The notes under the pieces were generated by a model. The model saw only the letters and a list, made by a program, of their open reading frames with translations, did not search any database and was not told where the DNA came from. This document shows positions 4,066 to 30,079 of a DNA stretch of 30,079 nt, piece after piece. Within the stretch, counting starts at the first letter, position 1. Each line of letters starts with the position of its first letter. Origin of the DNA: Solobacterium sp. UBA1789 (lineage in GTDB: Bacteria > Bacillota_I > Bacilli_A > Erysipelotrichales > Erysipelotrichaceae); NCBI GenBank assembly GCA_002314515.1, contig DCGB01000045.1:9008-39086 (forward strand), given 5' to 3'. Position numbers and translations under genes: made by a program.

Positions 4066-4095
4066 CCTGTAACCAAAGTACTAAACTAATGTTAT

Positions 4096-11274: not shown

Positions 11275-11314
11275 TCTATTCCCCTCTAAAAGACAAAAGA
11301 CTGCTATTGCAGTC

Positions 11315-12631
11315 TTATTCACTTACTTCCTCATTGCTGGTATCCAGTACTTTCAACAACTCAACGGCATTGGCATAAGTTTCAGTACCACTCTTCATCT
11401 CAACAACAGCTTCAAGATCTTTACGCAGATTATCCATATCACCAACCTGTGAATAACACAAAGCACGATTATAAAGACTATCTTCTGTCAAAGTATCATA
11501 TTCAATGGTTAAAGTGAAATCAGTAATAGCATCATCATATTTAGTTAAAGCAAAATTACACAAAGCTCTTAAATAAACAACCTCATAATGCGTATTATAA
11601 GTATTCAAGTAAACATTGAATGATTTTACTGCCGTCTTATAATAACCCAGCTGCATTTCAGCGATACCCTGCCATTTATAATAATCAATAGCCTGCTCAT
11701 CTTCGCCATAATGCTTAATAGCTAATTCAGCCAGTTTATACATAGTCTGATAATCATCTATCTGATAAGCACATTCAATGGCACTCTCTAGTAATTCATA
11801 TTCTTCGTTATCAATATGCGCAACATAAATATCCAAAGCTTTCTGATAAAAACCTAAGGCACTATAGAAAGAAGCACATAATATTTCCTCATTAAATTCA
11901 ATATCTGATAATTCTTTATATTCATGGGCATCTTCCATAGCTGCAGCCAAATCATCTTTCAATAAATTAGCCTGTAACCGGTATAAGATTAAATCTCCCT
12001 TCTTATCCGGATATTTTTCCATCGCAGCATTAACTGTATTGATAGCACCCTGATATTCATTGATATTGATATACATTGTCAATACTGTTTCATATTGTTC
12101 AAAAGTCAAATCATTGTTATCAGCGTATTTTTTAACATTGATCAGAGCCTGGGCATAATCACCCTGCTGCAGATAAGCTTCTGACAGATAAAGCAAGGCG
12201 TTGTTATTGGTGTCATCATATTCCAAAGACTTCTTTAAGTAGTCCACTGCATCCTTGTATTCACCAAGCTGACAATCAATAATACCAACCTTTCGATATA
12301 CCTGAGCAATCTTTTCGTTATCATCGGTATAATCCAAAGCCAAAAGATAATCCTCAATAGCCTTTTTATAATCTTCCTTATATTCATCCATAAAGGCATT
12401 AAGAAAACATTCTTCAAAAGTATCAATCTTCTCATTAGACTTTAAATACAGTTTAATTTCACTGATAACTTCATTAGTAATCTCTGCCTCATCATCTGTA
12501 ACGATGGCGATAAGTTCTTCCATCTTTAACTTGCGATAAAATTTGACCGAATAATTGACACATGTCGTCAACAAGGCAATAACGCAGATAACTATTAAGA
12601 CTTTTTTTAGGAATTTACCGATTTTATTCAT
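11315..12631 (-). CDS. Membrane-anchored tetratricopeptide repeat protein
   Basis: N-terminal basic stretch plus hydrophobic helix (MNKIGKFLKKVLIVICVIALLTTC). Multiple TPR consensus units, e.g. AQVYRKVGIIDCQLGEYKDAVDYLKKSLEYD and SLYNRALCYSQVGD. Start set to ATG 12631; the track uses 12652. Confidence 0.85.
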   Translation of the reverse strand: MNKIGKFLKKVLIVICVIALLTTCVNYSVKFYRKLKMEELIAIVTDDEAEITNEVISEIKLYLKSNEKIDTFEECFLNAFMDEYKEDYKKAIEDYLLALDYTDDNEKIAQVYRKVGIIDCQLGEYKDAVDYLKKSLEYDDTNNNALLYLSEAYLQQGDYAQALINVKKYADNNDLTFEQYETVLTMYININEYQGAINTVNAAMEKYPDKKGDLILYRLQANLLKDDLAAAMEDAHEYKELSDIEFNEEILCASFYSALGFYQKALDIYVAHIDNEEYELLESAIECAYQIDDYQTMYKLAELAIKHYGEDEQAIDYYKWQGIAEMQLGYYKTAVKSFNVYLNTYNTHYEVVYLRALCNFALTKYDDAITDFTLTIEYDTLTEDSLYNRALCYSQVGDMDNLRKDLEAVVEMKSGTETYANAVELLKVLDTSNEEVSE

Positions 12632-12648
12632 ATTTGAACCCCAATCAT

Positions 12649-12680
12649 ACAAACAGCTGAATTTTTATCCAGCTGTTTGT
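12649..12680 (-). terminator. 11-bp hairpin between the giant gene and the TPR gene (weak terminator, stabiliser or operator)
   Basis: ACAAACAGCTG-N10-CAGCTGTTTGT; no clear U-tract follows on the minus strand. Confidence 0.5.
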
Positions 12681-12703: not shown

Positions 12704-15700
12704 CTACTCGTCATTTTTCTTCTTCTTTTTTACAAGGAAGAAATAAATTGCAGCAGCAGCTAGACCGACACCGACAACAACAGGTAAGTAGTTAGGACTT
12801 TCAGCAGCAATCTCATCGACTACTTCTTCAACATCTTCAACTACTTCCTCCTGCTTAGGCTCTTCTTCTTTTTCCATCCGCTCTGGGATATGTTCGTCGA
12901 TATACTTCAATACAAGCTTACTGAAGTACTGACGGATAATACCCTTTTCAGTGATTCCCAGAGTATTGAGGATATCCAAACCTTCAAGGCCTTCTTCAGT
13001 GATAACAACATATGATACTGCTGTATCCTTCTTCAAGCCACGGGAATTGAATATTGCGTTGCCATCTCTTACGATACCCTCTGCTACATATACATGACCC
13101 TTAATTGAAGTCAATGCATAGACGGTTGTACCGTTTTCAAGCTCACAATCCTCAGGCAATCTAACGATTACGATAATACCGTATGTGTTATACTTAGCCT
13201 CAACATTCATACCAGCTAAGAAGTACTCACTATCAGCAGCCTTCTTCAGCAGATCGTAACCTTCAACTTCTGGATCAAGATCTAAGGCAGAGAATTCGAA
13301 CTTGGCACTTCTTGGCAAGAAACCAACAACTCCACCTAAGTCAGTTACTTCGTCCCATCTTGTTCTCAGACGATATCTGATAGGTTCACTAGCAACAGAA
13401 GCCTTATTCTTGAGAATTCTATAGTTCAGATGACCATAGATAGTATTTGTAACGACTTCTTTAGCACCGCGAATTCTTAATTCTTCAACTGGAGTACCGA
13501 TATTACCATTAGAGTTAATGTAAATTTCTTCGCCCTTAATGATGCCATCATCACCAGTTCTCAGATTACCTTCATCAGTAATGAAGATCTGCTTACCTTC
13601 CAGATTATCAATCTTCAATTCTTCTGAAGAATTAGAGATGTTGATATTATCACCACTCATATCCAATTCATCAGTAATCAGATTGATAGAACCAGGAAGC
13701 TTCTTAACACGACCATCTTCATTGCTCTGTTCAACATTTTCATTGAACTGATCCTTAGTTTCCTCAGTTACAACACCAATGTCGCCCTTAGCCTTTAATG
13801 TGACCTTATCAGCATTAATGATAGAATCATCATCCTCAGGAGTAGCACTACCATTTAAATTCAGATATACGTTGTTATTAGCAGTAATATCACCTAGTTC
13901 AGTATTTTCCTTATTACTGTTGTTCAATGCGATATCATCAGCAGTACCCTTAATGCCCTTAACATCAACATTTAATGGCTTATTTTCAGTACCAACAGAA
14001 TGAGTACCATCAGATTCTTCTTCAGAACCTGTAATAGCAACAGCTTCAAAGTCATTACCCTTAATTACTGGAGACTTAGCAGCAGCACTTGTAATATTGC
14101 CTAATGTTTCAAGTCTGACATCATCTTCAGCAACAACCTGAACAAGTCTCAAACTATCTTCGCTGGCAATATCAACACCACCATTAGCAACCAGATCCAA
14201 AGTACCCTTGATGTCAGTAGTAATCATCTGACTCTTAACACCATCTACATCTTCACCGGCATCACCGAAGCCACCACCAGTTCTGATTACAGCATTACCA
14301 TTAACTGTTAATGTTGCATCCTGAGCATCATCAAGGCTTCTACCAATCTTAGCTTCATCGCTTGTATCACCCTTTTCAACAGTGATTGTAGTATCATCAA
14401 CATTCAACTGATTAGCAGCACTATTTCTAATAATATCCTTATTAGAAGTACCGGAAATACCATTTTCAGCAGAGATGCTATTGAATTCTTCCTGCAATTC
14501 TTCGTTTTCTCTTATCAGAGAATACACACGATCATTCAGAACATCAAATTCTTCCTGGAGATCCTGCTCTTTTTCATATTCCTTAGCAAGATTATTCTGA
14601 GTTTCTCTGATCAAGGAGATCTGATCTTCAACTTCCTTACGAGTATCAAGAGGAAGCTTACTGTAATCAACATCATCTGGTCTGATATCAGTTGCAACAG
14701 TATTTTCTGTTAAAGACTGACCAATCAGATATTCATAGTCAACAGCATCCTTAACCAGATCCTTCAAACGATTAACCTGTTTCTCTAATTCTTTTTCAGC
14801 ATTATAGACAACAGTCTTCTGAGCATTCAGAGCACTTCTAGCCTTAGCCCAATCACCAGCAGGAGTAGTACCAGAAGCTAAACGAGTCAAGTCAGAAATC
14901 TCATCGTTATTTGAATTGATCTTGTTATCAATATGAATCAGTTCGTTAGTTACTTCTTCCTGATCAACAATGTCACGCAACTGACTAATCTGTTGTGCCT
15001 TTGTATTTAAGTCGTTGTTTGCGGCATCCAGTTCATCTTTAGCATCAGCCATAGCGTTTTCAGCATTGACATATGCTCTATATAGCTTCATGAATTCTGA
15101 ATCCTTCATCAGCTTATTCAGAATCTCATTATACTGTTCGCCATTAACCAGCGACTGATGTTTAACTCCTAATTTAGCAACGATTGTATCAAATGCTAAC
15201 TTAGCCTTGTTATATGCTTCTTCAGCATTCTTGTAAGCTACTGTCTTTTCATCAACAATTCTCTGAAGTGCAACGATTTCATCATATGACTTAATTAACT
15301 GCTTATAAGTATCAACAGTAATCTGAGCCTGACTTTCATTTCCGCTGCCCAGTTCTTCAAACTCGTCGATTGCATCAGTAATACCTAAGATAGTATTCTG
15401 ATAATCAACAACAGCCTTAATAATATCTTCCTTAGAAGATTCAACAGTTAAACCAAGAACCTCTAATAATGCGATATCATCAGCAGTCAGATTATTCAAA
15501 TCAGTAACAGTTAATCTTTCAGCATCGCTAACAAGCTTATCAACCAGTAATGCTTCATCAATTGCCTTCTGAATAGTAGCTATTACTGTACTATCCTTAT
15601 TAGCATCAACTGCCTGAACCATTGCGTTTGTTGCAGCATAGATATATCTCTTAGCTAATTCATTGTTTGCAGATAAATCACTACCCTCTGCTTCATTTCT

Positions 15701-18700
15701 ATGAATAGCCTCATCCAATGCCATCTGAGCTTCAACCATCTTCTTCAAAGCATCAAGTTCATCAGCACGCTCATTCAATGCAGCAGTAGCCTCATCGATA
15801 GTACCATTTACCTTTGTAAGTTCATCTAATGCTCTGATTGCCTTTCTGATATCTTTATCAAGAGCAAGAACATTATCTCTCAACTGAGAGCGCTCATCTT
15901 TTATAGCCTGAATAGCTACAGGATCAGTTTCTGTTAACAGCAATGCATCAAGTTCTTTGATTCTATCTTTATAAGCATTCCGTTCAGTAGTCTTTCTTGT
16001 GATATAATCAGGAACATTTGTGTTATAAGCTACAGCATCTTCATATTCCTTAGTTAATGCTTCAATTTCATCATTGATAGCGCTGTATTCAGCATTAGCA
16101 ACTCTGATTTCCTCTCTCTTAGCATTAACCAGACTTGTAGCATCAGCTAAAGCCTTTTCCTTAGCAACAAGTTCAGCTAAAGCCTTATGAATATCATCCT
16201 TAGTAGCATTTGGATCATTCTTCAATGCTACCAGATCAATCTTGTTGTAGTTATCAAGATCAGTCTGCTTAGCTTCCAGGTCTAGGAGCAATGCATCCAG
16301 TTCACCACATAATGAACCGATTTCATCATTCTTAGCGGTTGCTTCATCATTCTTATCAATGATAGCCTGCTCAAGATCTTTTACCTTTTGAGCACTATGA
16401 TTATTATCCAGACTAGCCTTATAAGCTAATGCTGACTCTAATTCATTCTTAGCCTCATTGTAGGCATACTGTCTATCAGCCAATTCGATTAATAGAGCAG
16501 ATAATGAATTATCATTACCATCAACCAGATAACCAGCTGCATTCAATACTAATTCACCATCCGCAACTGATCTGCCTAAGATAGCAGAACCGCTTACTTC
16601 AGCATCATTAGCACTATCTTCAAGAATATTCAGATAAACATTCTTACCATTGAAATCAACCTTACCAACCTGCTTTTCGCCTTCATAGTAGTAAGTTACC
16701 TTATCAGTGATTTCAAATGGCTTAGCCTTAGTACCGATATCACCAACTGTATTGATAGATACGGAACCCTTAGCATAGATATGACCACTTAATACCTTAG
16801 TGTCAGGATTCATGTCATTCAATACTACTGAACCATAATCAGAGATAACATCAATCTCGTAATGAGAATCAGCACAAGTAGCATTTAAGACCAGAATGTC
16901 CTTAACCTTCAGATTTACATCCTTATCCGTTGTACGTAATGTCAATCCACCGACTAACTTACCATCTTCATCGATTGTACCAACTGAAACAAGCAAAGGA
17001 TTTTCCTTAGTACCAAATACCGGATTTACATCATCTTCACCAGTAGTGAATGTTGCATTACCCTTAGCATAGATATTTGGAGTATTATCTGCCTTCTGCT
17101 GCTCAGTTCTACCATCATTGATATCTTCCGGAATGATGTAACTTAAGTCATTTTCAGCATGGATCTCACCGATATTGACACTACCGGTAGTCTCAACCAT
17201 GTATAAGTCACCACCCATAGCAACGGCATTTACTGTCATTGGCTTAGAGTAGTCATAAATTCTCAACCAGTAGTATTCTACTGCAAGCTCGATACCATAT
17301 GTTGACTTAACACCATCGGCATCTACCATCTCAGCAATGTAACGGTAACCTGCTGGAACAACATTGTTATCATCAGCAAATGTACCAACATTTTCTTCTA
17401 ATAAAGTAATCAGATTGCTAGCGCCAATTACCTTGTAACCATGTACATATTCCTTAGAAGTCGGATAGTAGAATTCGTTGTAATAAACATCATATGCAGC
17501 CTGCTTATCAGCAAAGTATTCTAAGTACTTCTGACCATAGAACTGATCAATCAGATCACCACGGTTATATGTACCGAAACCGTAAGGATCATTATTACCA
17601 GTTACATTTACTACCTTTTCATATGTGTAAGAACGAGTTTCAGTTAATAACGGACTGAATCTGCTACCAATAGAACCAGCAGCATACAACGTCAAGTTAC
17701 CACCGATAATATGTAATTTTTCGAAATTCTTAACTGAATCCTGGTCACATAAACCAACTCTTGGACCTAAATTCAGGAAGAAGTTCTGAGCAAACAGACT
17801 ATCAAGTTCAACTGGATTAGTCCATGCACCATTTACATAGGCATTTTCATAATCTAAGCCATCATTCCTATAAATCCATTCCTGCTTAGCGAAATCTTCA
17901 TTTGTAACCTCATCCAAGTCAGCAGCATAGATACTACCGCCCAGGTTCTTGATAGTTACATCGCCATATTCTGAACGAACATTAGTAAGAATAATATCAC
18001 TTATTCTCTTACCATCTTTATTGTGGTTAATAGCGACTTTACCAGCTGCAGCTCTAGCTAAGATCATTGGTCTTAATTCAGTATCAGCAGCATTAGGATC
18101 AACTGTGATAGTGATATCACCGGTGTTATAGATATGAGCAGAGCCATACATTTCACCGATAACCATCTCAAAGTCTCTACCATTAGCAACTACATGAGTA
18201 TTAATTAATGAATAGAGTTCATTGCGTAAATCAGCTAAAGCATTTCTAGCAGCAATAACATCAGCTACTGCAAGCATCATATCTTCTCTAGCTAACTTCA
18301 GATAATCAGCAGTTAAAGTCTTATCTAAAGAGAATGTTTCATAAGCACCCTGTTTAGCAGCCAAAGTCTTTTCAGCAGCCTCTAAAGCTTTAATAGCCTT
18401 AGTATAAGCAGAATCTTCACCCTGGTCAGGATCCCCGACCACAATCTCCTTAACTCTATCAACTATTTCTCTTGCCTGATCTTCATCAGCGAAAGAGTCA
18501 CATAATTCTTTATATCTCTGAGTTAATAACTGAATTCTAGCCTCAACCTGAGCAATAGTCAGATAAGTAGCCTCAGCTTCACTTACCTTGTTCTCATAAG
18601 AAACCTTTAAGTTAAAGATTGACTTAGTATTACTGATCTTAGTACTGAAATCAACACCACTATTAGTAGCCAACTGATTTAATTCATTCATCAGTTCTTC

Positions 18701-21700
18701 AGCATAAGTATTAACAAGAGCCTTCTTGTCATCATCTGTTGTTAACAGACTTAATTCATCAGCAAACTTAGCAACCTTGGCATTAACAGTCTTATAAGCC
18801 TCAGCCTTGAACTCTGCCAATACAGCCTCATCAGCAAACTTAGCAGCAGCAATCATCTTATTGACTGTATTATTCAAGTTATCTAATTCAGTCAACTGAG
18901 TACCATATGCCTTCTGATAAGCAGTCTGAGCAGCAGTCAAATCCTTATTAGCCTTATCTAATTCAGCCTTAACTTCACTCTTGGAACTATAAGTTGCACG
19001 TAAAGCAGCACTAAGGATATCAGCATATTCCTTATCCAGGTTAGCGCCATTGTAGAACAATTCGTTAACTAATTCTGTCTTATCTCTTTCACCAAAGATG
19101 TAAGAAGAATCATTGTTAGCAACATATTCATCATTGACATATAACAGATAAGTTACAATAGCAAGCTTGTCGCTATTAGTTAATTCTGTAGATTCAATAC
19201 CAGCCTTGAATGCCTTACGATATTCACCAGCTTCATCAAACATGAAGTCACCAAATACCAGACCTTCATTTAATGGATTAGCTTCAAATTCAGCCTTATC
19301 CAACTCATATTGAGCATACTGTTCATCATAAGCAGCCTGATATGCAGCCTTAATAGCCTTAGCCAAAGCGCTGGAATTCAGAACGCTTGAAGCCTTCAGT
19401 AAATCAGCAACATTTTCTGCTTCAAGAGCCTTATTGTTATTAGTTAAAGTAATCAGATCTTCATAATCTTTTACATAATTATAGAAGTTCTTCTTAGTAG
19501 CGGTATCAGCGGCATTATCACCAAGGTGATCAATCATCCACTGAGCCAGCTTTTCATTAGTATCCAGATCGAACAGACTAATGAAGTACTGTACATCGCT
19601 GTAACCCAGGAAATTCAGAGCAGTCTTGTTATTAAGAGCTAAATTAATACCCTCAATACCAACACCATTTGTATTGAAATACTGATAAATATCCCAAGGA
19701 ATCTGCTTCTGAGCATCGATATAGAAGCTGTTAACCAAAGTAACAACTGGCTTAACAGTATCAGGAACATCGATATACATCCACTTAGCAGTATTACCAA
19801 TATTGCGACCAGCTGTCAAAGTCAGAGTAGAAGTCTTAGCATTCTTCTTATCATATGTTGTCTCATCATAAGTGATAGCAGCATGTTGTTCCTTGCCCTC
19901 GACATCAGTCTGATGTAACAGATCGATATTATTGTTAGCAGCTAAAGTAACATTTGAAATACCAGAAACATTAACCTTATCAAACAATAAACTACCATCT
20001 AAGCTATCAAGAGTAATATCACTATGTTCAACATTAACCAGTGAAATCTCAATATTCTTAGAAGCAACTATCTTTAATGTTGAATCAGAAACATCAATTG
20101 TACGTAACTTGATTTCCTTAACCTTAGTATCCAAGCCTGAGCTTAAGAAACCACCATCATTAGAAGTCAGATTTACAACTGAACCCTTGTTAACGATTAA
20201 TGGAGTATTGAAGCGAACTTCTGGATCATAGTCAGCATAATCAACATTCTTGGCATTATCGATAACGATATCGCCAGCGATATTTGCATCAACGATAGAA
20301 TTAGTAATAATCCAATCGTAACTTAATAATTTACCTCTGATTGTAGCATCGCCATCAACCTTAGCATGAGTCTTCATAACCAACTTATTCTCAAGCTTCA
20401 AAGTTGGATTGCTTGTATTGCTCATGAACAGCTTGTCGATAGCAATATTACCCATAGCATCAACAACAACATCGTTACCCTTGCCTGTTGCCTCAGCACC
20501 TAAAGTAATACTTACATCAGGAATAATTACATTACCATTTGTAGAATATAGCTTAACAATATTACCAGTATCATTGTGGATTGACAGAGAATCCATTGTA
20601 ATATCATCTTCAACATTGATAATCAATGTAGAACCATTACCTACTTCAATTGAAGGTTTATCAGGATCGGTATTAATTACATTGAATCCACCATGGTAAG
20701 ACAGAATATTAGCCTCACCCTGATTAACAATCTGAAGAGTCTTAACTGTAATCTGACCATCAGAAGTGAATTCCAGATATGAACCTGGTTCAGCACTACC
20801 AGAAACTGGCTTACCATTAACGATAATATCATCGAATGTAATCAGACCCTGACCATCGCCAGTACCCAGAGCAAGAACTCTGAACTTGGCATCAGCCTGT
20901 AATGTAACATTCAAACCAGTAACACTACCATTCAAAGCAATGATATCGAAAGAACCGCCCTCTAAGATGACAATGTTCTTTTCGAACTGCATGTTAGTAT
21001 CCTTAACTTCGATAGACTGACTACCAGAATAGTATGAAGTATCATCATTAACAGTATTTCTGTTAACTAAATTACCAGTTCCACTAGTGAACTTATACTC
21101 GATACCATCAGTAGCGCCAGCACCATACTTATTAAGAATAGTTTCAAGAACTGTATTGTTCTTATCATCCTTAGAAGCAGTCAAAGTATCATATACGTTA
21201 TGCAATGAAATGATATTGTCGGTAATTCCATTAGTATCATTAGCATCACTTAACTCATAGTAACCGCCATCATACCAGAAGAATACTTCAGCCTTCTTAG
21301 ACTCCAGCTTATTGATATCATAACGATTCTGACTTTCTTCAGTTGACTTAACCTTAGCCATACTGAAAGTAGTACCTACAGCTTCAACCGGACTAATTTC
21401 TTCGTTTTCATAATTATACTTAGCAACACCATTTTCATATAAACGACAACCATTAGCTGTAATTTCATATAAAGTAGTGCCCTCAGCATTATTGATTAAT
21501 GTAGAAGTACCAGAAACCTGCTTAGTAGCCAAATTCCAGGTATTTACATAATTATTTGTAGTCAAGTAATAGTAATTACCAGCAGCATCCTTGGCAATTT
21601 CATCTAATACTTTTTCAAGCTTCAATGGTCTGTCAGTTAAAGTAACAGTTGTGCCATCGCCACTGACTGTACTTGAACCATTTGCACCATAATTAGTAGT

Positions 21701-24700
21701 AATATCACCATCAACAGTTTCAATATACTGAAGACCATTTAACTTAGTATAAACTTTGCCATCTTTGCCAACAGCAACAGTTTCAGTGACATTATAAATG
21801 TTATTAATAGCAGGTAAGTAAATTACTCTACTTACACGCTTAGAAGCAACAGCATCCTGAGCATCGTCTGGCAATTCAGCAATTGCAAAGACATCATCAC
21901 CATACTGGTTGAAATAGAAGTAACCATATGTTTCGTTGTTGTAAACAGTTACTGTCTGATCCTTACCCTTGATTGTTACATCTAATGAATAAGTACCATC
22001 ACCATTATCAACAGCCTCATCAGGAAGTTCAGCTAACTTTGTAATATTAGCATAGTAATCACCTGCATCAGTAACATCGATTCTGATCTTAACAGAAGTT
22101 TCCTTAACTGTAACAGAAGCACTATACTTATGATCTTCGCCTTCTACCTTTTCAGCATCTTCAGGTAATTCTTCAATATAGTGAATATTGCCATCTTCTG
22201 TTGTATAGTCATACTTCTTGATAACTTCCTTATAGATATCCTTCTCAAGATCTAAAGTTACTGTAGCGATATAGTAACAGCCATCTTCTTCAACAACATA
22301 TACAGCACCTTCAGGAAGTTCATCTAAGTAATTAGTTGTTCCTTCATGACCATCTCTTGGATCTGCAAATTTGAAGCGACCAGTTTCTTTGACAAATACA
22401 TCAACAGTGACATCTTCATCAGCTAATTTAGTTGTCTTTGTCCAGTAACCATTTTCTGTATCTTCTGTATAACCATCTAAAGAATCAACAGTGACATGGC
22501 TGACACCATCTTCACCCAACTTATAGTAAGCATCTGCATCTTTAGAAATTGTAATATTGACATCGACATTCTGAGTTTGCTTGATAGTATAAGTATTTTC
22601 TTCGCTACCCTCAACTGCATCCTCAGGAAGTTCATCTAATTCAACAAGCTTAGTACCTTCTTTATAGTAGAACTTGCCTTCAACTTCATAGATAGTAACA
22701 TCTACTTCCTGTTCAACAGTGATAGTTGCACTATACTGACCTTCACCAATTGACTGAGCATTAGCTGGAAGATCGATAGCAACCTTATCGTCACCATCCA
22801 TGTAGTAATAAGTATCAGCTTCCTTACGAACGATCTCAAGCTTAACTGGGCTAATAGTAACAGTGCCACTATAAGCCTTCTTCAGAGAATCATAAACAGC
22901 ATCAGTAGGAAGTTTAATTTCTACTTCTTCACCATCAGCATTGATATAGTAATATGAAGTCTTAGTGCTTTCGATAATTACTGAATGGTCTTTCTGACCT
23001 ACAACAACTTTCTCGGCAACTAAACCAGATTCATCATCTGTGTCATCAACAATACCTTCTGGTAAATCAATATACTTCTTGACAGTTTCTTCTTCGTCTT
23101 CGAAGTAGTAGTAATGATTTTCAATTTCTTCATTGATAGTTACATCTTCTTCTTCAGTGCTTACAACAACTGAACCAACATAATATGTAATTTCATTACT
23201 TAATGTATTTAATGTAACAAGACCACCAATGATTGTTGTAGTATCATTACCTTCAGCATCCTTGGCATATTCATAGAATACACGGTAGTCGCCATATTCA
23301 GTTACATCGCAGTTAGCAATACGATATACAGGAGTATCAACATACTTCTTATCATTATCAACATCCTGCATTACGCTCTTGATAACAGTTAATGCGTAGT
23401 ATGAAGTTGAACCACTGCCTTCAATATCCTGGTTCTTATGCTGACTTGGACCAACCTTAGTATATGAATGACCAACAGATTCTTCGTCAGAAGTACTTCC
23501 ATTAGTTAGTATATAATCTGTCTTTCTAGTACCTGCACTGGCAACATCAGCGCTGATATACCATTCTTCGTCATCGTCATCATAATAATAATGAACAGAA
23601 TATAATCCTAAGTATTCGATATCGTTATAAGCCATCAGAATAACATTCTGAGTATAGTGTTTATCAGAGTTGTAATTAACTGTTAACTTATAGAACTTAA
23701 CCTTAGAATCTAATAATGAAAGATCTGGAAGTTCTTCAGTATTGTTGTAATAATTTCCGAAGCCACCATTCTTCAGGTTATACTTAGCAGTACCATTCAT
23801 TAGGATGCTAAGAATAATTTCACAATCATTCTCGTTTTGTCTATCTAATTCAGATGCATATTCTAATGTACCCCAAGTGCCATTTTTACATACTTCAACT
23901 ACATAATTAACATAGTCATAGATATGATTAACATTAGTACCATCTGATAGACCCTTAGTCTTTAACAGCTTAATCTGTTCAGCAGTCAGATAAACAGTGA
24001 AGTCGCTAGAGAAGCCCTCTTCAACCTCAAGCTTACCCAATGTGTAATCAAATGAAGCATAATATGTATAACCATCAACTACATCAGTAGCCAGAATAAC
24101 TCTATTAGTAGTCTCCTCACCAAAGAGCATTCTCTGATACAATTCATAACCATTGAATGAAACAACCTTGTCATTTTCATCCAAAATCAGAATTGAATTA
24201 TCAGGCAATACATACATCTTATTGCCATCATCATCAACTTCCTTGAAGTAACGCTCTAAAGCAGCACCCTTCAAAGCAACACTATCATTACCAGTGCCAT
24301 CAACATATACTAGACCTGTCTCAGGTGTAGCAACACAGACACCACCAGCCTCAGGTGTGTAATTAATTCTTCTTGGATCAGACATATGGATATCAAGAAC
24401 ACCATCTGTAGAGATATCACCAAGAATAATTCTGCCATCAACAGCCTTATTTGAACTTGCAGCAGTTAAAGTATACATTCTATTTACTTCAACCAGAATT
24501 GGTTCAAAGAAGACATCACCACTAGCTGTAGCAGTAATACCAGGATTAACATTATTGTGCTTGCACATAAATACCTGGAAATAAGTATTATTCTTCTGCT
24601 CAGCCATCTTACCTAAGGCGATAGAATATTCATCTTCTGAATAATATTCATTAGTAGAAGTACCAATATTCTTGGCATTAGTAATATTTAACTTAACAGT

Positions 24701-27700
24701 CCATAATGGAGTAATCTTATTACCTTCAACAGTGATATAAGAAGCAAGTAAATTACCAGCACCATTGATCCAGTTGATATTAGTTGAACCATGTTCATTG
24801 GCAACAACATTACCGAATAATAAATCACCACCATTATAAGAATCAATCTTAATTGAACTTGGAAGTTCTGGAGAAATCTTATTAACTTTTCCAAATTTAG
24901 CAGCATACATCTTAGGCTCGCCATTAGCTGTGTTCATATCAATTGCACACAGAACAGTTGTACCAGGGAAGTATGTATCAATCTCTAACTTAGAACCATC
25001 ATAGTAGTTAACAACAGCCTTGCTTAAGTCAACGCCGGCAGCAGATAAAGTACCTGTTCCTCTTGGAATCATCTTGCCATTTAAGACAACCTTATCAGCA
25101 CTAACAGAAGAAGAAATCTTACCTAATAAACCAGTCTGATAGATCTTACCATTTTCATCGATACCAACCTTAGCACCAACAGCAGCACCACCGATTTCAA
25201 ATACAGAACCAGAATCAGCATTTACAGTATTGCCATTAACAACACCATAACGAGTATTAACATCCTTGACTGCAAAGATTGAAACCTTTGTACCCTTAGA
25301 AGACTGACTTACACCACCATTGAAAGCAGTAGAATTTAAGGAAACATTATAACCTCTAACAGTAGAATTAGAAATTAAAGATGTGCTATTTACTGTGCCA
25401 TCAACAGCAGCTGTAGATTCAATATAACCAGCAAGTGAAACCATTACAGCCTTAGCCTTAGTCTCAATATTCGTACCACCCTTAGATGGAGTTGAACTAG
25501 TTAAGATACTAGCATTGTTATAAGCTGTAACTTCTGACTTGTTAACAATATTGACCTGATTAATAAATGCTAAATTAAATCTTGCCTGAGCGAAACCAGC
25601 ACCACCAGCAGCAACTAACTTAGAATAAGCATTAGCATACAGATAAAGTTCCTTAATCTGAGAAGCAATATTAACATTTGTAGCTCTAACCTTAGAACCA
25701 CTAACAGTAACAACACCACTCAATACAGCAACATTATCATAAACATTGGCAGTAGGTGAACCACCTAAACCACCAGCTGAGAAGTCACCATTTACATATG
25801 AACCACTCTCAGAAACATTAGTCATCAGATTTAATGTACCGAAATCAGCATTTAACTGTGAACCCTCAACACTTAATTTACCAGAATTGACTAACTCAGT
25901 CTTAGCATGAGCACCACCAATACCAACTAAACCAACAGAAGAACCATCAGCTGCAGTATAGATACGATCTTTGCGACCAATTTCCAGAATGATATTCAAA
26001 TTACCAAAACGGGCATTAACAGTAGCATTGTTGATCTTCAGATTAACATTTCTACCAATAGTCTGAGTAGCAGTTAATGAACCACCAGAGAAGATACCAC
26101 CAGAATTAGCATTTGTATGAGCAGATGCATTTGCATTAACATCTGTAGAAATATTGATATTATCATGAGCCTTTACAACTGCATTCTTATCAACATATAC
26201 TTCACAATTCTGTGTAATATAGTTCAAAGCAGCCTTGAAATCAGCACTAACCAGGATACCACAGCCATCACCATTAACAAGTGAATTTGCATTAGCTGTA
26301 TTAATAGCCTTGATTGTTACGCTACCATTCTTAGACTCAACATAAGCATTAGCAGCTACATAAGCATCAGTACGATATGTACTTACAGTAGTTACATTAT
26401 TTGAGCTGATAGAAATACCAGAAATCTTGAAGCCAGCAGTTAACTTAGCCTCAATTGTACCGACATTTTCAGCAACGATTGAAATATCACCATTTGCGAT
26501 TAACTTGGCATTTGCAGCAACATATGCCTTAACAGTCTGAGCAGCAGCATCACCGATAAAGGCAATGACATCATTACCAGAACCAGAAACCAGTGAAACA
26601 CTGACACCAGAAGCACATTCTGTATAAGAAGTAGTCTTGCTCTGAGCCTTAACATCAGCTGAACCATTCAGATCCAAAGTGAAGGCATTACCATTACCAA
26701 CATGAGCATAAACCTGATCATAGCAATCTGATAATGCATATGAACCACAGACACTGGCAACAGAAACACTAACCGGCTTCAAAGCAATTGCATTAGCACT
26801 TGTATTAGACTTAGCCAAAACCTTAGCTTTCAATGCCTTAACAACTGCACCATTGTAACCAGCAATATAAGCATTGTTATAAGTAGCAGTAAAGGCCTTA
26901 GCAATATTAACACTACCCTCAACCAGTGATAAGCTGACACCCTCACTATTACCAACCTTGGCATAAGACTGACCATCTAATGTAGAAGTAACATCCAGGT
27001 TACCACCGATAACCATATCTTTACCGAAGTTAGTAAATGCCTGCTGAGAAGCCATACTGTATGTCAACAGATGATTAGCAGCAGCATCAACCAAGGAAAT
27101 GCTTACTGTATACTTCAGAACATCAGCTAAAGCAACAGAATCACCAACAGTCTTAACAACAACATTACCCTTGATATTACCAGAACCGGCATTGATCAGA
27201 TAAGAATTAGCAGCAGACTGTGTATAAGCTCTAGCAATATTGACACTGACAGAAGCGACACTTAAAGAAACGCCACCACCAATTGGACCAGTTACAGAAT
27301 AAGCCTTAGTTCTATAACCACTTCCAATATAAATGTTTCTAGCTTCAATATTTGAATTAGAATTTGTTGAATTAACACCAGCCTCATATGTGCCTCTTGC
27401 GAAAGCCTTAACATAAGTAACACCGGCATTAACAGCACTTACGCTAACAGTAGGCTGACAAACCTGAGTATCAGCATAAGAATTTGCGAATGTATTGATA
27501 TAGATATCTTCGCTGGTCTTAGGGCTTGCACCATATAATACAGCTCTAACAACAGAACTTGAATAAGCTAAACCAATATTAGCAGCAAGCTTGAATCCAC
27601 TGACAGAAACAAGAGGAGCACCAACTAAAGCGAAGGCACCATAGTTATTATTAGCTGAAGGAGTTGTAACATCAGCGCTTTCAGAATTGTTATTAACATT

Positions 27701-30079
27701 ATAGAAAGATAAGATTCTAACTTTCTTAGCATTAATTGCAACACCATCAGCACTTGAAATCTGATTAGCAGCTAATACAGCCATGACGAAGGAAGCATTT
27801 ACGCTAACTGCGCCAGCAGAAATTAATTTAGATTCGATTTCAGAAACAGCTCTGACCTTACCATTTGAAACAACAGAAACAGTATAGCCATCAGCATTGA
27901 TAGTACCTGAACCGATAATAACAGCATTAGCAACTGACTTAACCTTAGAAATAGCTGCATTGACATGAGCAGAAACTAAACCACCACCTGAACTTGGAGC
28001 CAGTTTAATAATACTCTCGGCATTGTAATCAACAGAAACCTTTACATCGCCAGCAGCGTTGATAACGCCATTATTTAAAACTTCAAGAATAGACTCAATA
28101 GTACCCTTTGCATAAGTATAAGCAGCAATAGTACCAACACCTACAGCAGAGATACCATATTCGAATACCTGAGCAACTGCCTTAGTATTAGCAACAGCAG
28201 CAACCTCGATACCACCAGCATAAGAACCTTCCTTGACAATAGTCAGGTTACTAGCAGCAACCTTAGCGCGACATGTTGCATTAGCAATAGCAGTAGTAGC
28301 ACTTACACCAACAGTAACTGGACCAGCCTGCATAGAAACCAGGAAAGTCTGAGCCATATCAGTGAACTTAATAGTAGTTGTGTCAGACTTCTTCAAACCA
28401 TACTGGACTTCTAAAGTCTTAACAGGAACACTTGTATTCTGAGTTGACTTAACTGTCAACTTTCTAATAATCATTTCCGCATTACTTGAAACTAAGGCTT
28501 CCTGAATACCCTTAGTAACAGCAATTGGAACTGAACAGCAAACTGTAAATGAGAAACCAACACTGGCACTGGCAATGATAGATCTGGCCATTGCATTACC
28601 ATTCATGACGATAGATACTTCATTAGCATCTAACAAGCCACTAGTTGTACCTCTTAAATCACTTAAGAAATGAGATTCATTTAAAGCAACAGCGATGTTA
28701 ATAGCAACTGAAGCACCACCAGCCTTACCAGACAGAATATTTACAAATGCTTCAGAAGAACTTGCAGATTCACCAACAACAAGCTTGTTGATATACATCT
28801 TACCATCAACGCCAACAACATTAGCACTGATAGCACCAATCTGAGAAATACCAACACAGGCACCAGCAGCAACGCCACCAACAACCAAACTTGTGATAGT
28901 TACACCAGCATCACCATTGATCTTAGAATCAACTAATACTTTATTAGTCTTAGTTGTACCACCATTAGAGATATTGAAACCATCGAGTAAAGCAACAGAT
29001 ACTACACGGTTAAAGTTCATTGCCACAATACCATTGACAGCAACTAAACCACCGGCAACACCGACACCTAAGACAGTTGAAATACCATGAATATTATTCT
29101 TAATAGAAATATCATCAGCAACGATTGTACCTAAGACATCTGACTTAACAGTACCAACACCACCATTATTTGTAATATAAGGAACAGAACCGACAAATGT
29201 CATAGCCTGAACATTATTTACAACAACAGCAACTGTAGCACCAATAGCAATTTCACCTAAAGAAACAGAGATAATGAAAGCCTTAGCTGTAGCATCAACA
29301 TCAGCCAATACATCCAAATCACCATTCTTAATAAATAACTGAGCACCACGGGCAATATAAGTATTTGCAACTGTTCTATTGAAGACCAGAGCAACACCTG
29401 CAGAAACAGCACCCAAACCACCAGCTAAAGAAGCAGCAGCACAACCAGCTAATGTATCAGCATCAGTAATAACTTCAACATGCTTAACAGACTCTTCTTC
29501 AGAACCAATAGTACTATGAGCACCAATACCAGTAGTAACCTGACCAGCAAAGTTTACATAACCAACAGAAGCAGCAACACCAGCAGTACCAGAAATAGCA
29601 ATACCGATAACAGCAGCCTGAACTTCACCAAAGTTCATAACGCCCTTAACCTGGACATTATCAGCCTTTGTAACGCTACCATCTAAAACAGCATGGATAT
29701 CACTGTAAACAAGCATTACAGCACAAGCAATACTGATACCAGCAGTACCACCACCAGCAACAGATAAAGAAATAACTCTAACTGTTGAAGCATTAGCATC
29801 CTGAGAAATCAGTTCAGCTTCTCTTAACTTGTCAGTAACCTTTTCCTTAGTCTTAGCAGCAACTCTTCTTAACTTAGAAGCTAAGTTCTTATCGCGGTTG
29901 CTTGCATTATCATCCATCTTCTCATCAGCGTCAGTTAAAGGAGCATCGCCACTCTTCATGAATGGATTATTGCTTAATGAACGAGGATCAGAACCAGTAG
30001 AAGCCTTAACAATGACATCTCCACCAGCAGATAATACAGCACCCTCCTGAACTTCAGCATTAACATTACTTGAAGCAAT
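12704..30079 (-). CDS. Giant filamentous surface protein (>5,790 aa, 5'-truncated by the window) with LktA/FHA-like beta-helical repeats, alpha-helical insertions and a C-terminal TM anchor
   Basis: The frame is open to 30079 (IASSNVNAEVQEGAVLSAGGDVIVKAS... precedes the track's Met), so the start is outside the window. A/V/S/G/N-rich repeats (e.g. GVAASVGYVN, GATVAVVVN, AVSVNAS), later IG(T/S)xxxP(L) repeats, then an acidic linker, TM (LPVVVGVGLAAAAIYFFLV) and KKKKK tail. Tandem stops TAG TAA. Confidence 0.9.
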   Translation of the reverse strand: MASSNVNAEVQEGAVLSAGGDVIVKASTGSDPRSLSNNPFMKSGDAPLTDADEKMDDNASNRDKNLASKLRRVAAKTKEKVTDKLREAELISQDANASTVRVISLSVAGGGTAGISIACAVMLVYSDIHAVLDGSVTKADNVQVKGVMNFGEVQAAVIGIAISGTAGVAASVGYVNFAGQVTTGIGAHSTIGSEEESVKHVEVITDADTLAGCAAASLAGGLGAVSAGVALVFNRTVANTYIARGAQLFIKNGDLDVLADVDATAKAFIISVSLGEIAIGATVAVVVNNVQAMTFVGSVPYITNNGGVGTVKSDVLGTIVADDISIKNNIHGISTVLGVGVAGGLVAVNGIVAMNFNRVVSVALLDGFNISNGGTTKTNKVLVDSKINGDAGVTITSLVVGGVAAGACVGISQIGAISANVVGVDGKMYINKLVVGESASSSEAFVNILSGKAGGASVAINIAVALNESHFLSDLRGTTSGLLDANEVSIVMNGNAMARSIIASASVGFSFTVCCSVPIAVTKGIQEALVSSNAEMIIRKLTVKSTQNTSVPVKTLEVQYGLKKSDTTTIKFTDMAQTFLVSMQAGPVTVGVSATTAIANATCRAKVAASNLTIVKEGSYAGGIEVAAVANTKAVAQVFEYGISAVGVGTIAAYTYAKGTIESILEVLNNGVINAAGDVKVSVDYNAESIIKLAPSSGGGLVSAHVNAAISKVKSVANAVIIGSGTINADGYTVSVVSNGKVRAVSEIESKLISAGAVSVNASFVMAVLAANQISSADGVAINAKKVRILSFYNVNNNSESADVTTPSANNNYGAFALVGAPLVSVSGFKLAANIGLAYSSSVVRAVLYGASPKTSEDIYINTFANSYADTQVCQPTVSVSAVNAGVTYVKAFARGTYEAGVNSTNSNSNIEARNIYIGSGYRTKAYSVTGPIGGGVSLSVASVSVNIARAYTQSAANSYLINAGSGNIKGNVVVKTVGDSVALADVLKYTVSISLVDAAANHLLTYSMASQQAFTNFGKDMVIGGNLDVTSTLDGQSYAKVGNSEGVSLSLVEGSVNIAKAFTATYNNAYIAGYNGAVVKALKAKVLAKSNTSANAIALKPVSVSVASVCGSYALSDCYDQVYAHVGNGNAFTLDLNGSADVKAQSKTTSYTECASGVSVSLVSGSGNDVIAFIGDAAAQTVKAYVAANAKLIANGDISIVAENVGTIEAKLTAGFKISGISISSNNVTTVSTYRTDAYVAANAYVESKNGSVTIKAINTANANSLVNGDGCGILVSADFKAALNYITQNCEVYVDKNAVVKAHDNINISTDVNANASAHTNANSGGIFSGGSLTATQTIGRNVNLKINNATVNARFGNLNIILEIGRKDRIYTAADGSSVGLVGIGGAHAKTELVNSGKLSVEGSQLNADFGTLNLMTNVSESGSYVNGDFSAGGLGGSPTANVYDNVAVLSGVVTVSGSKVRATNVNIASQIKELYLYANAYSKLVAAGGAGFAQARFNLAFINQVNIVNKSEVTAYNNASILTSSTPSKGGTNIETKAKAVMVSLAGYIESTAAVDGTVNSTSLISNSTVRGYNVSLNSTAFNGGVSQSSKGTKVSIFAVKDVNTRYGVVNGNTVNADSGSVFEIGGAAVGAKVGIDENGKIYQTGLLGKISSSVSADKVVLNGKMIPRGTGTLSAAGVDLSKAVVNYYDGSKLEIDTYFPGTTVLCAIDMNTANGEPKMYAAKFGKVNKISPELPSSIKIDSYNGGDLLFGNVVANEHGSTNINWINGAGNLLASYITVEGNKITPLWTVKLNITNAKNIGTSTNEYYSEDEYSIALGKMAEQKNNTYFQVFMCKHNNVNPGITATASGDVFFEPILVEVNRMYTLTAASSNKAVDGRIILGDISTDGVLDIHMSDPRRINYTPEAGGVCVATPETGLVYVDGTGNDSVALKGAALERYFKEVDDDGNKMYVLPDNSILILDENDKVVSFNGYELYQRMLFGEETTNRVILATDVVDGYTYYASFDYTLGKLEVEEGFSSDFTVYLTAEQIKLLKTKGLSDGTNVNHIYDYVNYVVEVCKNGTWGTLEYASELDRQNENDCEIILSILMNGTAKYNLKNGGFGNYYNNTEELPDLSLLDSKVKFYKLTVNYNSDKHYTQNVILMAYNDIEYLGLYSVHYYYDDDDEEWYISADVASAGTRKTDYILTNGSTSDEESVGHSYTKVGPSQHKNQDIEGSGSTSYYALTVIKSVMQDVDNDKKYVDTPVYRIANCDVTEYGDYRVFYEYAKDAEGNDTTTIIGGLVTLNTLSNEITYYVGSVVVSTEEEDVTINEEIENHYYYFEDEEETVKKYIDLPEGIVDDTDDESGLVAEKVVVGQKDHSVIIESTKTSYYYINADGEEVEIKLPTDAVYDSLKKAYSGTVTISPVKLEIVRKEADTYYYMDGDDKVAIDLPANAQSIGEGQYSATITVEQEVDVTIYEVEGKFYYKEGTKLVELDELPEDAVEGSEENTYTIKQTQNVDVNITISKDADAYYKLGEDGVSHVTVDSLDGYTEDTENGYWTKTTKLADEDVTVDVFVKETGRFKFADPRDGHEGTTNYLDELPEGAVYVVEEDGCYYIATVTLDLEKDIYKEVIKKYDYTTEDGNIHYIEELPEDAEKVEGEDHKYSASVTVKETSVKIRIDVTDAGDYYANITKLAELPDEAVDNGDGTYSLDVTIKGKDQTVTVYNNETYGYFYFNQYGDDVFAIAELPDDAQDAVASKRVSRVIYLPAINNIYNVTETVAVGKDGKVYTKLNGLQYIETVDGDITTNYGANGSSTVSGDGTTVTLTDRPLKLEKVLDEIAKDAAGNYYYLTTNNYVNTWNLATKQVSGTSTLINNAEGTTLYEITANGCRLYENGVAKYNYENEEISPVEAVGTTFSMAKVKSTEESQNRYDINKLESKKAEVFFWYDGGYYELSDANDTNGITDNIISLHNVYDTLTASKDDKNNTVLETILNKYGAGATDGIEYKFTSGTGNLVNRNTVNDDTSYYSGSQSIEVKDTNMQFEKNIVILEGGSFDIIALNGSVTGLNVTLQADAKFRVLALGTGDGQGLITFDDIIVNGKPVSGSAEPGSYLEFTSDGQITVKTLQIVNQGEANILSYHGGFNVINTDPDKPSIEVGNGSTLIINVEDDITMDSLSIHNDTGNIVKLYSTNGNVIIPDVSITLGAEATGKGNDVVVDAMGNIAIDKLFMSNTSNPTLKLENKLVMKTHAKVDGDATIRGKLLSYDWIITNSIVDANIAGDIVIDNAKNVDYADYDPEVRFNTPLIVNKGSVVNLTSNDGGFLSSGLDTKVKEIKLRTIDVSDSTLKIVASKNIEISLVNVEHSDITLDSLDGSLLFDKVNVSGISNVTLAANNNIDLLHQTDVEGKEQHAAITYDETTYDKKNAKTSTLTLTAGRNIGNTAKWMYIDVPDTVKPVVTLVNSFYIDAQKQIPWDIYQYFNTNGVGIEGINLALNNKTALNFLGYSDVQYFISLFDLDTNEKLAQWMIDHLGDNAADTATKKNFYNYVKDYEDLITLTNNNKALEAENVADLLKASSVLNSSALAKAIKAAYQAAYDEQYAQYELDKAEFEANPLNEGLVFGDFMFDEAGEYRKAFKAGIESTELTNSDKLAIVTYLLYVNDEYVANNDSSYIFGERDKTELVNELFYNGANLDKEYADILSAALRATYSSKSEVKAELDKANKDLTAAQTAYQKAYGTQLTELDNLNNTVNKMIAAAKFADEAVLAEFKAEAYKTVNAKVAKFADELSLLTTDDDKKALVNTYAEELMNELNQLATNSGVDFSTKISNTKSIFNLKVSYENKVSEAEATYLTIAQVEARIQLLTQRYKELCDSFADEDQAREIVDRVKEIVVGDPDQGEDSAYTKAIKALEAAEKTLAAKQGAYETFSLDKTLTADYLKLAREDMMLAVADVIAARNALADLRNELYSLINTHVVANGRDFEMVIGEMYGSAHIYNTGDITITVDPNAADTELRPMILARAAAGKVAINHNKDGKRISDIILTNVRSEYGDVTIKNLGGSIYAADLDEVTNEDFAKQEWIYRNDGLDYENAYVNGAWTNPVELDSLFAQNFFLNLGPRVGLCDQDSVKNFEKLHIIGGNLTLYAAGSIGSRFSPLLTETRSYTYEKVVNVTGNNDPYGFGTYNRGDLIDQFYGQKYLEYFADKQAAYDVYYNEFYYPTSKEYVHGYKVIGASNLITLLEENVGTFADDNNVVPAGYRYIAEMVDADGVKSTYGIELAVEYYWLRIYDYSKPMTVNAVAMGGDLYMVETTGSVNIGEIHAENDLSYIIPEDINDGRTEQQKADNTPNIYAKGNATFTTGEDDVNPVFGTKENPLLVSVGTIDEDGKLVGGLTLRTTDKDVNLKVKDILVLNATCADSHYEIDVISDYGSVVLNDMNPDTKVLSGHIYAKGSVSINTVGDIGTKAKPFEITDKVTYYYEGEKQVGKVDFNGKNVYLNILEDSANDAEVSGSAILGRSVADGELVLNAAGYLVDGNDNSLSALLIELADRQYAYNEAKNELESALAYKASLDNNHSAQKVKDLEQAIIDKNDEATAKNDEIGSLCGELDALLLDLEAKQTDLDNYNKIDLVALKNDPNATKDDIHKALAELVAKEKALADATSLVNAKREEIRVANAEYSAINDEIEALTKEYEDAVAYNTNVPDYITRKTTERNAYKDRIKELDALLLTETDPVAIQAIKDERSQLRDNVLALDKDIRKAIRALDELTKVNGTIDEATAALNERADELDALKKMVEAQMALDEAIHRNEAEGSDLSANNELAKRYIYAATNAMVQAVDANKDSTVIATIQKAIDEALLVDKLVSDAERLTVTDLNNLTADDIALLEVLGLTVESSKEDIIKAVVDYQNTILGITDAIDEFEELGSGNESQAQITVDTYKQLIKSYDEIVALQRIVDEKTVAYKNAEEAYNKAKLAFDTIVAKLGVKHQSLVNGEQYNEILNKLMKDSEFMKLYRAYVNAENAMADAKDELDAANNDLNTKAQQISQLRDIVDQEEVTNELIHIDNKINSNNDEISDLTRLASGTTPAGDWAKARSALNAQKTVVYNAEKELEKQVNRLKDLVKDAVDYEYLIGQSLTENTVATDIRPDDVDYSKLPLDTRKEVEDQISLIRETQNNLAKEYEKEQDLQEEFDVLNDRVYSLIRENEELQEEFNSISAENGISGTSNKDIIRNSAANQLNVDDTTITVEKGDTSDEAKIGRSLDDAQDATLTVNGNAVIRTGGGFGDAGEDVDGVKSQMITTDIKGTLDLVANGGVDIASEDSLRLVQVVAEDDVRLETLGNITSAAAKSPVIKGNDFEAVAITGSEEESDGTHSVGTENKPLNVDVKGIKGTADDIALNNSNKENTELGDITANNNVYLNLNGSATPEDDDSIINADKVTLKAKGDIGVVTEETKDQFNENVEQSNEDGRVKKLPGSINLITDELDMSGDNINISNSSEELKIDNLEGKQIFITDEGNLRTGDDGIIKGEEIYINSNGNIGTPVEELRIRGAKEVVTNTIYGHLNYRILKNKASVASEPIRYRLRTRWDEVTDLGGVVGFLPRSAKFEFSALDLDPEVEGYDLLKKAADSEYFLAGMNVEAKYNTYGIIVIVRLPEDCELENGTTVYALTSIKGHVYVAEGIVRDGNAIFNSRGLKKDTAVSYVVITEEGLEGLDILNTLGITEKGIIRQYFSKLVLKYIDEHIPERMEKEEEPKQEEVVEDVEEVVDEIAAESPNYLPVVVGVGLAAAAIYFFLVKKKKKNDE
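14470..16500 (-). other. ~680-aa alpha-helical/coiled-coil insertion in the giant protein
   Basis: A/E/L/K/D-rich heptad-like sequence nearly devoid of G/P, flanked on both sides by beta-helix-type repeats. Confidence 0.75.
18195..19710 (-). other. ~500-aa alpha-helical insertion (helical bundle plus coiled coil) in the giant protein
   Basis: Runs from QKQIPWDIYQYF to ADLRNELYSLINTH; heptads such as VKAELDKANKDLTAAQTAY and LEAAEKTLAAKQGAY. Confidence 0.7.
21812..23116 (-). repeat. Nine degenerate ~48-aa protein repeats (YY/F-x8-12-(E/D)LP(E/D)(D/G)A-x6-9-Y-xxx-V) inside the giant ORF
   Basis: Cores IDLPEG, IKLPTDA, IDLPANA, LDELPEDA, VDSLDG (degenerate), LDELPEGA, IEELPEDA, LAELPDEA and IAELPDDA, each preceded by an aromatic cluster. 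The repeats are diverged at DNA level. Confidence 0.8.

Follow-up and report, generated by a model that had tools for sequence, protein, structure and literature searches.

What does a single gene of some 8,400 codons encode in a gut bacterium, and does its product belong to a known class of giant surface protein? The question is raised by a 30,079-nucleotide stretch of Solobacterium sp. UBA1789 (assembly GCA_002314515.1, contig DCGB01000045.1, hereafter C46; positions 9,008 to 39,086), which we refer to in its entirety as the window. A preliminary description, made from these letters alone, noted one open reading frame of >5,790 codons that was open at the window edge. It likened the product to the beta-helical filaments of the two-partner secretion (TPS) exoproteins (TpsA), such as the filamentous hemagglutinins (FHA) and the Fusobacterium leukotoxin LktA, but exported by Sec and tethered by a C-terminal transmembrane (TM) helix in a monoderm cell. 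We conclude that the giant protein is probably a single-chain, Sec-exported, membrane-anchored surface fiber of a monoderm gut bacterium, most likely with a role in adhesion or spacing. The fold class and the anchor proposed earlier held up under analysis, and membership in the TpsA or LktA families did not.

On the minus strand, the reading frame is free of stop codons from window position 30079 down to the stop at 12704-12706, a run of 5,791 codons that forms the C-terminal two-thirds of the gene (12704..30079 with the stop). The frame appeared open solely due to a 20-N assembly gap (C46:39087-39106) that coincides with the right edge of the window. The gene continues beyond this run with 165 stop-free codons, which lie in a different frame, then a second gap of 16 N (C46:39604-39619), and finally 2,441 further stop-free codons. 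Following the contig rightward, as the preliminary description had proposed, yielded the start codon, a Sec signal peptide, and the upstream genes. The ATG lies at C46:46943 (L002:7944), with a GGGGG ribosome-binding site 7 nt ahead of it and a 240-nt intergenic region upstream. With X placed at the two gaps, the full protein comprises about 8,399 amino acids (895 kDa, isoelectric point 4.55). Residue numbers below refer to this full protein; subtracting 2608 gives the numbering of the in-window translation, P0001. We infer one continuous gene because all three pieces are stop-free, because the distant homologs P0007 (7,816 aa) and P0006 (6,527 aa) align collinearly through both gap junctions, and because a paralog in the same genome contains N runs of similarly odd length. 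P0007 is collinear with the giant protein over the N-terminal head, residues 541-4768, and residues 5785-8311. Besides the two runs already named, C46 carries N runs at 6721-6733 and 8991-9007, and contig C65 has its own; they span 13-164 bases, with lengths that break the reading frame. Both window ends coincide with such runs, which resemble scaffolding gaps of estimated size inside repeats.

The full-length chain can be read from signal peptide to membrane anchor. Its N-terminus, MTNLKNILSRTSKVLFAVMFSVLLTLTLSVRVSA followed by DE, is a standard Sec signal peptide (residues 1-34), in line with the Sec export suggested earlier. A conserved head (residues ~85-380, from the head alignment) precedes solenoid I, an A/V/S/G-rich beta region at residues ~420-4400 that was delimited by composition, periodicity, and a 53-aa repeat alignment. 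The portion of solenoid I inside the window (24710..30079, minus strand) has a 53-56-aa period and an A+V+S+G fraction of 0.40-0.54 per 200-aa block. BLOSUM autocorrelation gives a period of 53 aa in residues 1600-2800 (lag-53 z of 3.9-4.5), where ten or eleven clean 53-mers occupy residues 1852-2428, and periods of 53-56 and 111-113 aa beyond residue 2800. Thus, A/V/S/G-rich repeats do come first, as originally described, but their extent had been put at about 1,600 aa; they span about 1,790 aa inside the window and about 4,000 aa in the full gene.

Solenoid I is followed by an aromatic-rich segment (residues 4400-4800) whose alignment shows conservation with P0006 and P0007, and then by a variable acidic zone (residues 4800-5780) that aligns to neither. 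Within this variable segment lies the second repeat class of the preliminary description, now resolved as eight acidic, Tyr-rich "ELPEDA" units (21800..23182, minus strand; P0001 2338-2735) with the core (E/D)LP(E/D)(D/G)A and a spacing of 47-104 aa. A crude propensity map suggests a first helix-rich segment at residues about 6150-6500 (18404..19456, minus strand), a second, coiled-coil-like one at residues about 7100-7800 (14504..16606, minus strand), and further beta-rich segments around them. P0006, P0007, and P0004 share the final beta-rich stretch of the rod and the small beta domain near the C-terminus (12860..14506, minus strand), which lead into an acidic linker. The C-terminal membrane anchor (12707..12787, minus strand) consists of a 19-residue TM helix (12731-12787; residues 8373-8391) and the tail KKKKKNDE (12707-12730), directly before the stop codon. 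The helix, LPVVVGVGLAAAAIYFFLV, is the most hydrophobic 19-mer of the chain (Kyte-Doolittle mean 2.42); outside the repeats, it and the signal peptide rank highest in hydrophobicity. No sortase signal was detected in the giant protein: TIGR01167 scored 13.8 bits against a cut-off of 15.9, and the sequence before the helix (...AAESPNY) contains no LPXTG or variant thereof. The terminus noted earlier, a TM helix with KKKKK, is read directly from the sequence and is of the stop-transfer, type I kind. No Pfam or NCBIfam family scored above threshold anywhere in the giant protein.

The fold of the rod was approached by modeling 1,200 residues of it (P0001:150-1349; 26033..29632, minus strand) with AlphaFold2 from an alignment of 44 homologous pieces. 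The model (mean predicted local distance difference test score [pLDDT] 89.9; predicted template modeling score [pTM] 0.88) is all-beta, contains no helices, and presents one long strand run per 53-57 aa. In an exhaustive comparison with VIA-align, all 50 listed matches were parallel beta-helix or solenoid proteins. The best was the curli protein CsgA from Pontibacter korlensis (8c50, Z 12.6), which matched over 314 residues across model residues 436-1194. It was accompanied by HxuA (Z 8.2), EtpA (7.3 and 6.2), tapirin (7.2), SRRP (6.7), HMW1 (5.6), and FHA (5.4), as well as by an antifreeze beta-helix, pectate lyases, and tailspikes. Foldseek returned no significant match to the rod model in the PDB or in AFDB clusters; its weak PDB matches were mostly beta-helix proteins (EtpA, HpmA, HxuA, VacA, FapC, and SRRP). 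As modeled, the rod is a parallel beta-solenoid, which confirms the beta-helical character assigned to it at the outset.

The model spans aligned by VIA-align contain two to three times as many residues as the chains matched to them, so each rung may comprise about 50-55 residues, one per sequence repeat. At one rung per repeat, the solenoid would be much wider than that of TpsA proteins, with their ~20-residue rungs, and solenoid I would contain roughly 75 rungs and measure about 35 nm, or proportionally more if each repeat formed two or three coils. None of the structures searched, whether solved or in AFDB clusters, matched a rung of this predicted size (~53 residues). The very long strands assigned by DSSP had suggested an antiparallel beta-helix tube of the kind described for giant proteins of Omnitrophota (10.1101/2023.11.21.568195); this candidate was dropped, as the VIA-align matches listed were all parallel solenoids. 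Nothing was found among PDB sequences by sequence or profile searches; the profile of the C-terminal 1,200 aa gave only weak coiled-coil-type noise. ESM Atlas feature searches with the head, the middle domain, and the C-terminal 612 aa likewise returned nothing usable (scores ≤0.80).

The head is the best-conserved region between the two giant paralogs of this genome (39% identity versus 28% for the rod). An alignment of 14 head sequences revealed N25, A26, G52, Y54, G56, and D57, among others, to be invariant. The AlphaFold2 model of residues 61-420 (pLDDT 80.8, pTM 0.79) begins with a capping helix that bears an NAIQxA motif and continues with strands of 4-7 residues. Foldseek placed RTX beta-rolls first (9cse, probability 1.00, 21% identity; family I.3 lipases, E-value 1.4e-3), followed by beta-helix lyases and tailspikes; the TPS domain of EtpA appeared only at an E-value of 0.41. 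Template modeling scores of the head against RTX rolls were low (0.2-0.3), and GxGxD motifs in the head alignment agree with an RTX-like model. We therefore describe the structural likeness as weak to moderate and the modeled head as a probable cap helix, beta-helix, and RTX-like roll rather than a TPS domain. Scanning metagenome contigs with the head alignment retrieved 32 loci, or about 18 clusters at 70% identity. In each of ten loci inspected, the head is placed 160-230 residues after a signal peptide, at the start of an open reading frame that leaves the fetched DNA after >2,300-3,677 codons. One of the clusters is a group of 12 near-identical loci (L106-L116, L121, and L126, on contigs of 37-323 kb) that carry a giant gene of >2,493 codons that encodes the head, with a TPR gene upstream. 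At least two of these contigs are named as human gut metagenome assemblies, which points to a common gut species, at least partly human-associated, carrying a member of the family.

The host is a monoderm, because its leucyl-tRNA synthetase, its lack of Omp85, and its sortases and LPXTG-type pilins agree. The source genome is a 1.27-Mb metagenome-assembled genome (MAG) of 137 contigs and 57.6% completeness. Its leucyl-tRNA synthetase, encoded on contig C65, shares 74-81% identity with the enzymes of Erysipelotrichaceae MAGs recovered from the gut of sheep, goat, and roe deer. A search for Omp85 (PF01103) that was positive in 7 of 14 control genomes found it in none of 31 genomes, comprising this one and 30 from its genus and order; 18 of these are of high quality. 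PF03865 gave no match in the genome, but the control genomes were silent as well. The genome encodes three sortases, and the sortase substrates on C46, both pilins, end in LPNTG and LPDAG. Regarding an outer-membrane partner, no TpsB-type gene occurs in five homolog loci. Both the monoderm assignment and the missing TpsB, first claimed from the window alone, are supported by these searches.

Relatives are few and scattered. A HMMER scan with 1,200 aa of the rod retrieved 79 proteins (E-value ≤1e-3), many of them fragments, from 1.84 billion representatives, and word-indexed searches added six more. All names given by the source databases are "hypothetical protein," from Clostridiaceae, Clostridia, Ca. 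Limivicinus, Bacillota, and Coriobacteriales MAGs. The rod was not found in 24 same-genus and 16 same-order genomes and matched weakly once among 399 Clostridia species genomes; a tblastn search of plasmids came back empty. Queried separately, the N-terminal 1,200 aa found no homologous protein within the length range searched, and the 53-mer zone recovered three proteins only, all unnamed, with no named LktA relative among them. GC content (37.6% versus 36.4% for the genome) lends no support to recent horizontal transfer; the patchy distribution of the family leaves room for an older one.

The paralog (C65:20435-49374, plus strand; L010 and L011) is larger still, at about 9,620 aa and ~1.01 MDa, with three N runs; together, the two giant genes account for 4.3% of the assembled bases, and both match the genome in GC content. 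The paralog terminates in a TM helix and RRKK, and a C-terminal TM helix with a basic tail is also present in P0004, P0012, and P0076. P0007, the closest complete homolog, ends without a TM helix, so this form of anchoring is not universal in the family. P0026 carries a VPTTGG-like motif before a C-terminal hydrophobic segment and basic tail; from its sequence, some members of the family may be sortase-anchored rather than membrane-anchored.

A recurrent genomic companion further distinguishes the family. The gene for P0087, a 445-aa protein with one N-terminal TM helix and Pfam-recognized TPR repeats, lies downstream of the giant gene at a distance of 51 nt (11315..12652, minus strand). A terminator scan found no terminator-like site in the interval, and P0087 is the sole copy in the genome. 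TM-TPR homologs adjoin giant genes in L093 (6770-8014), L122 (3433-4815), L124/L125 (L125:3999-5381), the L106 group (L106:4318-5475), L123/L128 (L123:4304-5350), and L133. They are 350-460 aa in length, have one N-terminal TM helix, and lie directly upstream of the giant gene on the same strand; their homology to P0087 is supported by BLAST (E-values 1e-5 to 2e-18), pairwise comparison (E-value 3e-21), and Pfam TPR. The pairing thus occurs in at least six independent lineages, with the TM-TPR gene downstream here and upstream elsewhere, which makes the TM-TPR protein a probable partner of the giant protein. In the L123/L128 homologs, the N-terminus ahead of the TM helix is strongly basic, which suggests an N-in/C-out orientation, with the TPR domain outside the membrane. 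Complex prediction for the TPR ectodomain and the head scored 0.00, which speaks neither for nor against binding. A 292-aa open reading frame farther downstream (10444-11322) was set aside, as it has no counterpart in L093.

These observations suggest how the fiber may be built. The 8,399-aa precursor would leave the cell through Sec, N-terminus first, with the signal peptide probably cleaved after VSA. Once outside, the head (capping helix, short-stranded beta-helix, and RTX-like beta-roll with GxGxD motifs) would fold, presumably in a calcium-dependent manner, and may serve as the seed for a wide parallel beta-solenoid of about 4,000 aa, in which each 53-55-aa repeat would supply roughly one rung. 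Next along the chain would come the variable acidic repeats, then additional beta rod and the two helix-rich stretches. The C-terminal TM helix would then halt export and leave the KKKKK tail in the cytoplasm; the protein would therefore stand on the membrane with its head at the far tip. Its most likely role would be adhesion to, or spacing from, other surfaces, such as host, food particles, or other cells, and the neighboring membrane TPR protein would probably aid export, folding, or anchoring. We also put forward, as a possible but rather doubtful extension, that the solenoid protein and the adjacent TM-TPR protein form a dedicated two-gene monoderm system, a functional counterpart of two-partner secretion. 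In such a system, the chain emerging from Sec would be met by the outward-facing TPR domain, which would nucleate or protect folding of both the RTX-like head and the ~53-residue-rung solenoid.

Several points weigh against the surface-fiber reading as a whole. No recognized adhesive or ligand-binding domain was found in the giant protein with Pfam and NCBIfam; structure models cover 1,560 of its 8,399 residues; and the size of one rung per repeat comes from alignment spans rather than coordinates. The anchor is missing from P0007, and continuity across the gaps is deduced from collinearity instead of being read, with the middle 165 codons out of frame as the Ns stand. The last of these raises the prospect of an assembly chimera or pseudogene, in which the pieces flanking the N gaps would not be one expressed gene; the two interruptions and a fragmented, partial MAG would be in keeping with it. 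We hold this to be very improbable: the 2,441-, 165-, and 5,791-codon pieces all lack stops, two homologs run straight through both junctions, odd-length N runs are expected of scaffolding gaps and recur in the repeats of the paralog, and the GC content of the giant gene equals that of the genome.

The remaining alternatives accept the gene and differ on what its product does. An Ebh-type envelope scaffold or shield would organize the wall zone, affecting cell size, envelope integrity, or steric masking, and bind no outside ligand. Ebh indeed follows a similar plan, with repeats amounting to about 1 MDa between a signal peptide and a C-terminal TM helix with its basic tail (PMC4856396), the missing adhesive domain is as a scaffold would have it, and the large share of the genome given to two giant genes also favors such a function. 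We nevertheless regard it as unlikely, given that no Ebh repeat family was detected, that the rod was not found in the same-genus and same-order genomes searched, a pattern more in keeping with an accessory role than with a core envelope function, and that the superior conservation of the head suggests a functional tip. Less probable again is a released, LktA-like cytotoxin or exoprotein, with the rod shed by proteolysis or in anchor-less variants to act on other cells. It would account for P0007 lacking an anchor, and the giant protein, P0007, and the paralog all give in-register, sub-threshold matches to the model of the LktA repeats (NF012206), whose 53-aa period is shared. However, every such score falls below the curated 50-bit cut-off, the host has neither an LktB/TpsB-type gene nor an outer membrane, and the giant protein, its paralog, and three other homologs all have a TM anchor. 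Moreover, no toxin domain was found, and recovered homologs are named only as hypothetical proteins. A membrane-anchored surface fiber thus remains our preferred reading.

Other genes nearby offer limited functional clues. A pilus locus at the left of the window encodes an LPNTG backbone pilin and a larger FctA/SpaA-type pilin ending in LPDAG (225-3375, minus strand), along with an S26 signal peptidase (3360-3863); a sortase gene lies just left of the window (C46:8392-9027, minus strand). The preliminary description placed the giant gene near sortase and pilus genes. Those genes are real, but between the cluster and the giant gene lie about 9 kb of unrelated genes, encoded on either strand; the giant protein has no sortase motif, and the link comes down to proximity. 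Directly upstream of the giant gene, a hybrid sensor kinase combines PAS, HisKA, HATPase_c, and two receiver domains (L002:8187-11006, minus strand; C46:47186-50005). The paralog is followed by a GGDEF gene (C65:49584-50675) and the homolog P0017 by one that encodes PAS, HD, REC, and GGDEF domains (L095:14759-19216). The recurrence of signaling genes near giants of this family is only a hint of regulation.

Of all gene products of gut Firmicutes, giant surface proteins are among the least understood; assemblies usually fragment them, and annotation offers only "hypothetical." The present analysis describes one gene of a rare family in full, signal peptide and membrane anchor included; its rod is a modeled beta-solenoid with a geometry that has no close solved counterpart. 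New here are the conserved N-terminal head, seen in about 18 lineages that include human-gut bacteria, the conserved TM-TPR neighbor, and a paralog of ~9,600 aa. The recurrent TM-TPR protein could be the dedicated helper of the family and, if the pairing is functional, would reveal a way for a monoderm to assemble a TpsA-like rod with no partner in an outer membrane. No established principle is changed, since C-terminally anchored megadalton proteins such as Ebh and Gram-positive beta-solenoid adhesins were already known.

How, then, does the giant protein compare with known systems? With the TpsA proteins (FHA, HMW1, HxuA, EtpA, and HpmA), it shares a long parallel beta-helical rod, a conserved N-terminal domain, and, as proposed, N-terminus-first export. 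The likeness is one of fold class only, given that the rod matches the TPS-domain structures of HxuA, EtpA, HMW1, and FHA at VIA-align Z scores of 5.4-8.2. The TPS domain itself (PF05860, Haemagg_act) gave no Pfam match at E ≤0.1 on the 2,441-aa N-terminal piece, and the Fil_haemagg repeats (PF05594 and PF13332) gave none on any piece. The giant protein further differs from TpsA in having no TpsB or outer membrane, predicted rungs of about 53 rather than about 20 residues, and a C-terminal TM anchor. A 53-residue tandem period is what it shares with LktA of Fusobacterium necrophorum, compared here through the LktA_tand_53 model (NF012206). This model scored 25.9 bits on the N-terminal piece (five stretches), 28 bits on P0007 (six stretches), and 20 bits on the paralog; single repeats reached 20-32 bits in a six-frame search, in register with the 53 positions of the model. 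P0001 gave no match, nor did 300 good genomes of the host's phylum. The shared period and sub-threshold scores point to a remote sequence relation of the repeat unit to LktA, not to membership. LktA is encoded in an lktBAC operon, in which LktB carries a POTRA domain, in a diderm host (PMC11350119), and nothing comparable to LktB was found here. Taken together, the domain searches do not support membership in the TpsA/FHA or LktA families.

Structurally closest to the rod is CsgA; both are parallel solenoids of stacked strand-arc-strand units. At 9% identity and with no Pfam curlin match, the resemblance stops there: CsgA is a small, polymerizing amyloid subunit secreted by diderms, whereas the giant protein is one covalent chain. 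RTX rolls (CyaA block V, family I.3 lipases, and Aeromonas 9cse) resemble the head in GxGxD-type motifs and as its best model match. RTX proteins differ in being exported by type I secretion rather than Sec; in the giant protein, the motifs are few and N-terminal only, PF00353 (HemolysinCabind) is not matched, and the C-terminus is a TM anchor. Among monoderm surface proteins, the binding region of the Lactobacillus reuteri SRRP and the Caldicellulosiruptor tapirins likewise use a parallel beta-helix as their functional part; these are far smaller and showed no relation in sequence. For SRRP, export runs through the accessory Sec system and anchoring through an LPXTG signal.

Ebh of Staphylococcus aureus is built of helical FIVAR/GA-type repeats. 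By comparison, the giant protein is mostly beta-solenoid, and no FIVAR, GA, DUF1542, or other Pfam repeat family was detected in it. In overall plan, Ebh is nonetheless the nearest precedent: a ~1.1-MDa protein of a monoderm that, like the giant protein, joins a signal peptide, a single chain of about 1 MDa, and a C-terminal TM helix with a basic tail that anchors it in the membrane (PMC4856396). A Gram-positive, Sec-exported, C-terminally membrane-anchored giant was thus already on record. More generally, Gram-positive fibrillar adhesins place a functional part at the N-terminus and an anchor at the C-terminus (PMC8286594), and the layout of the giant protein follows suit.

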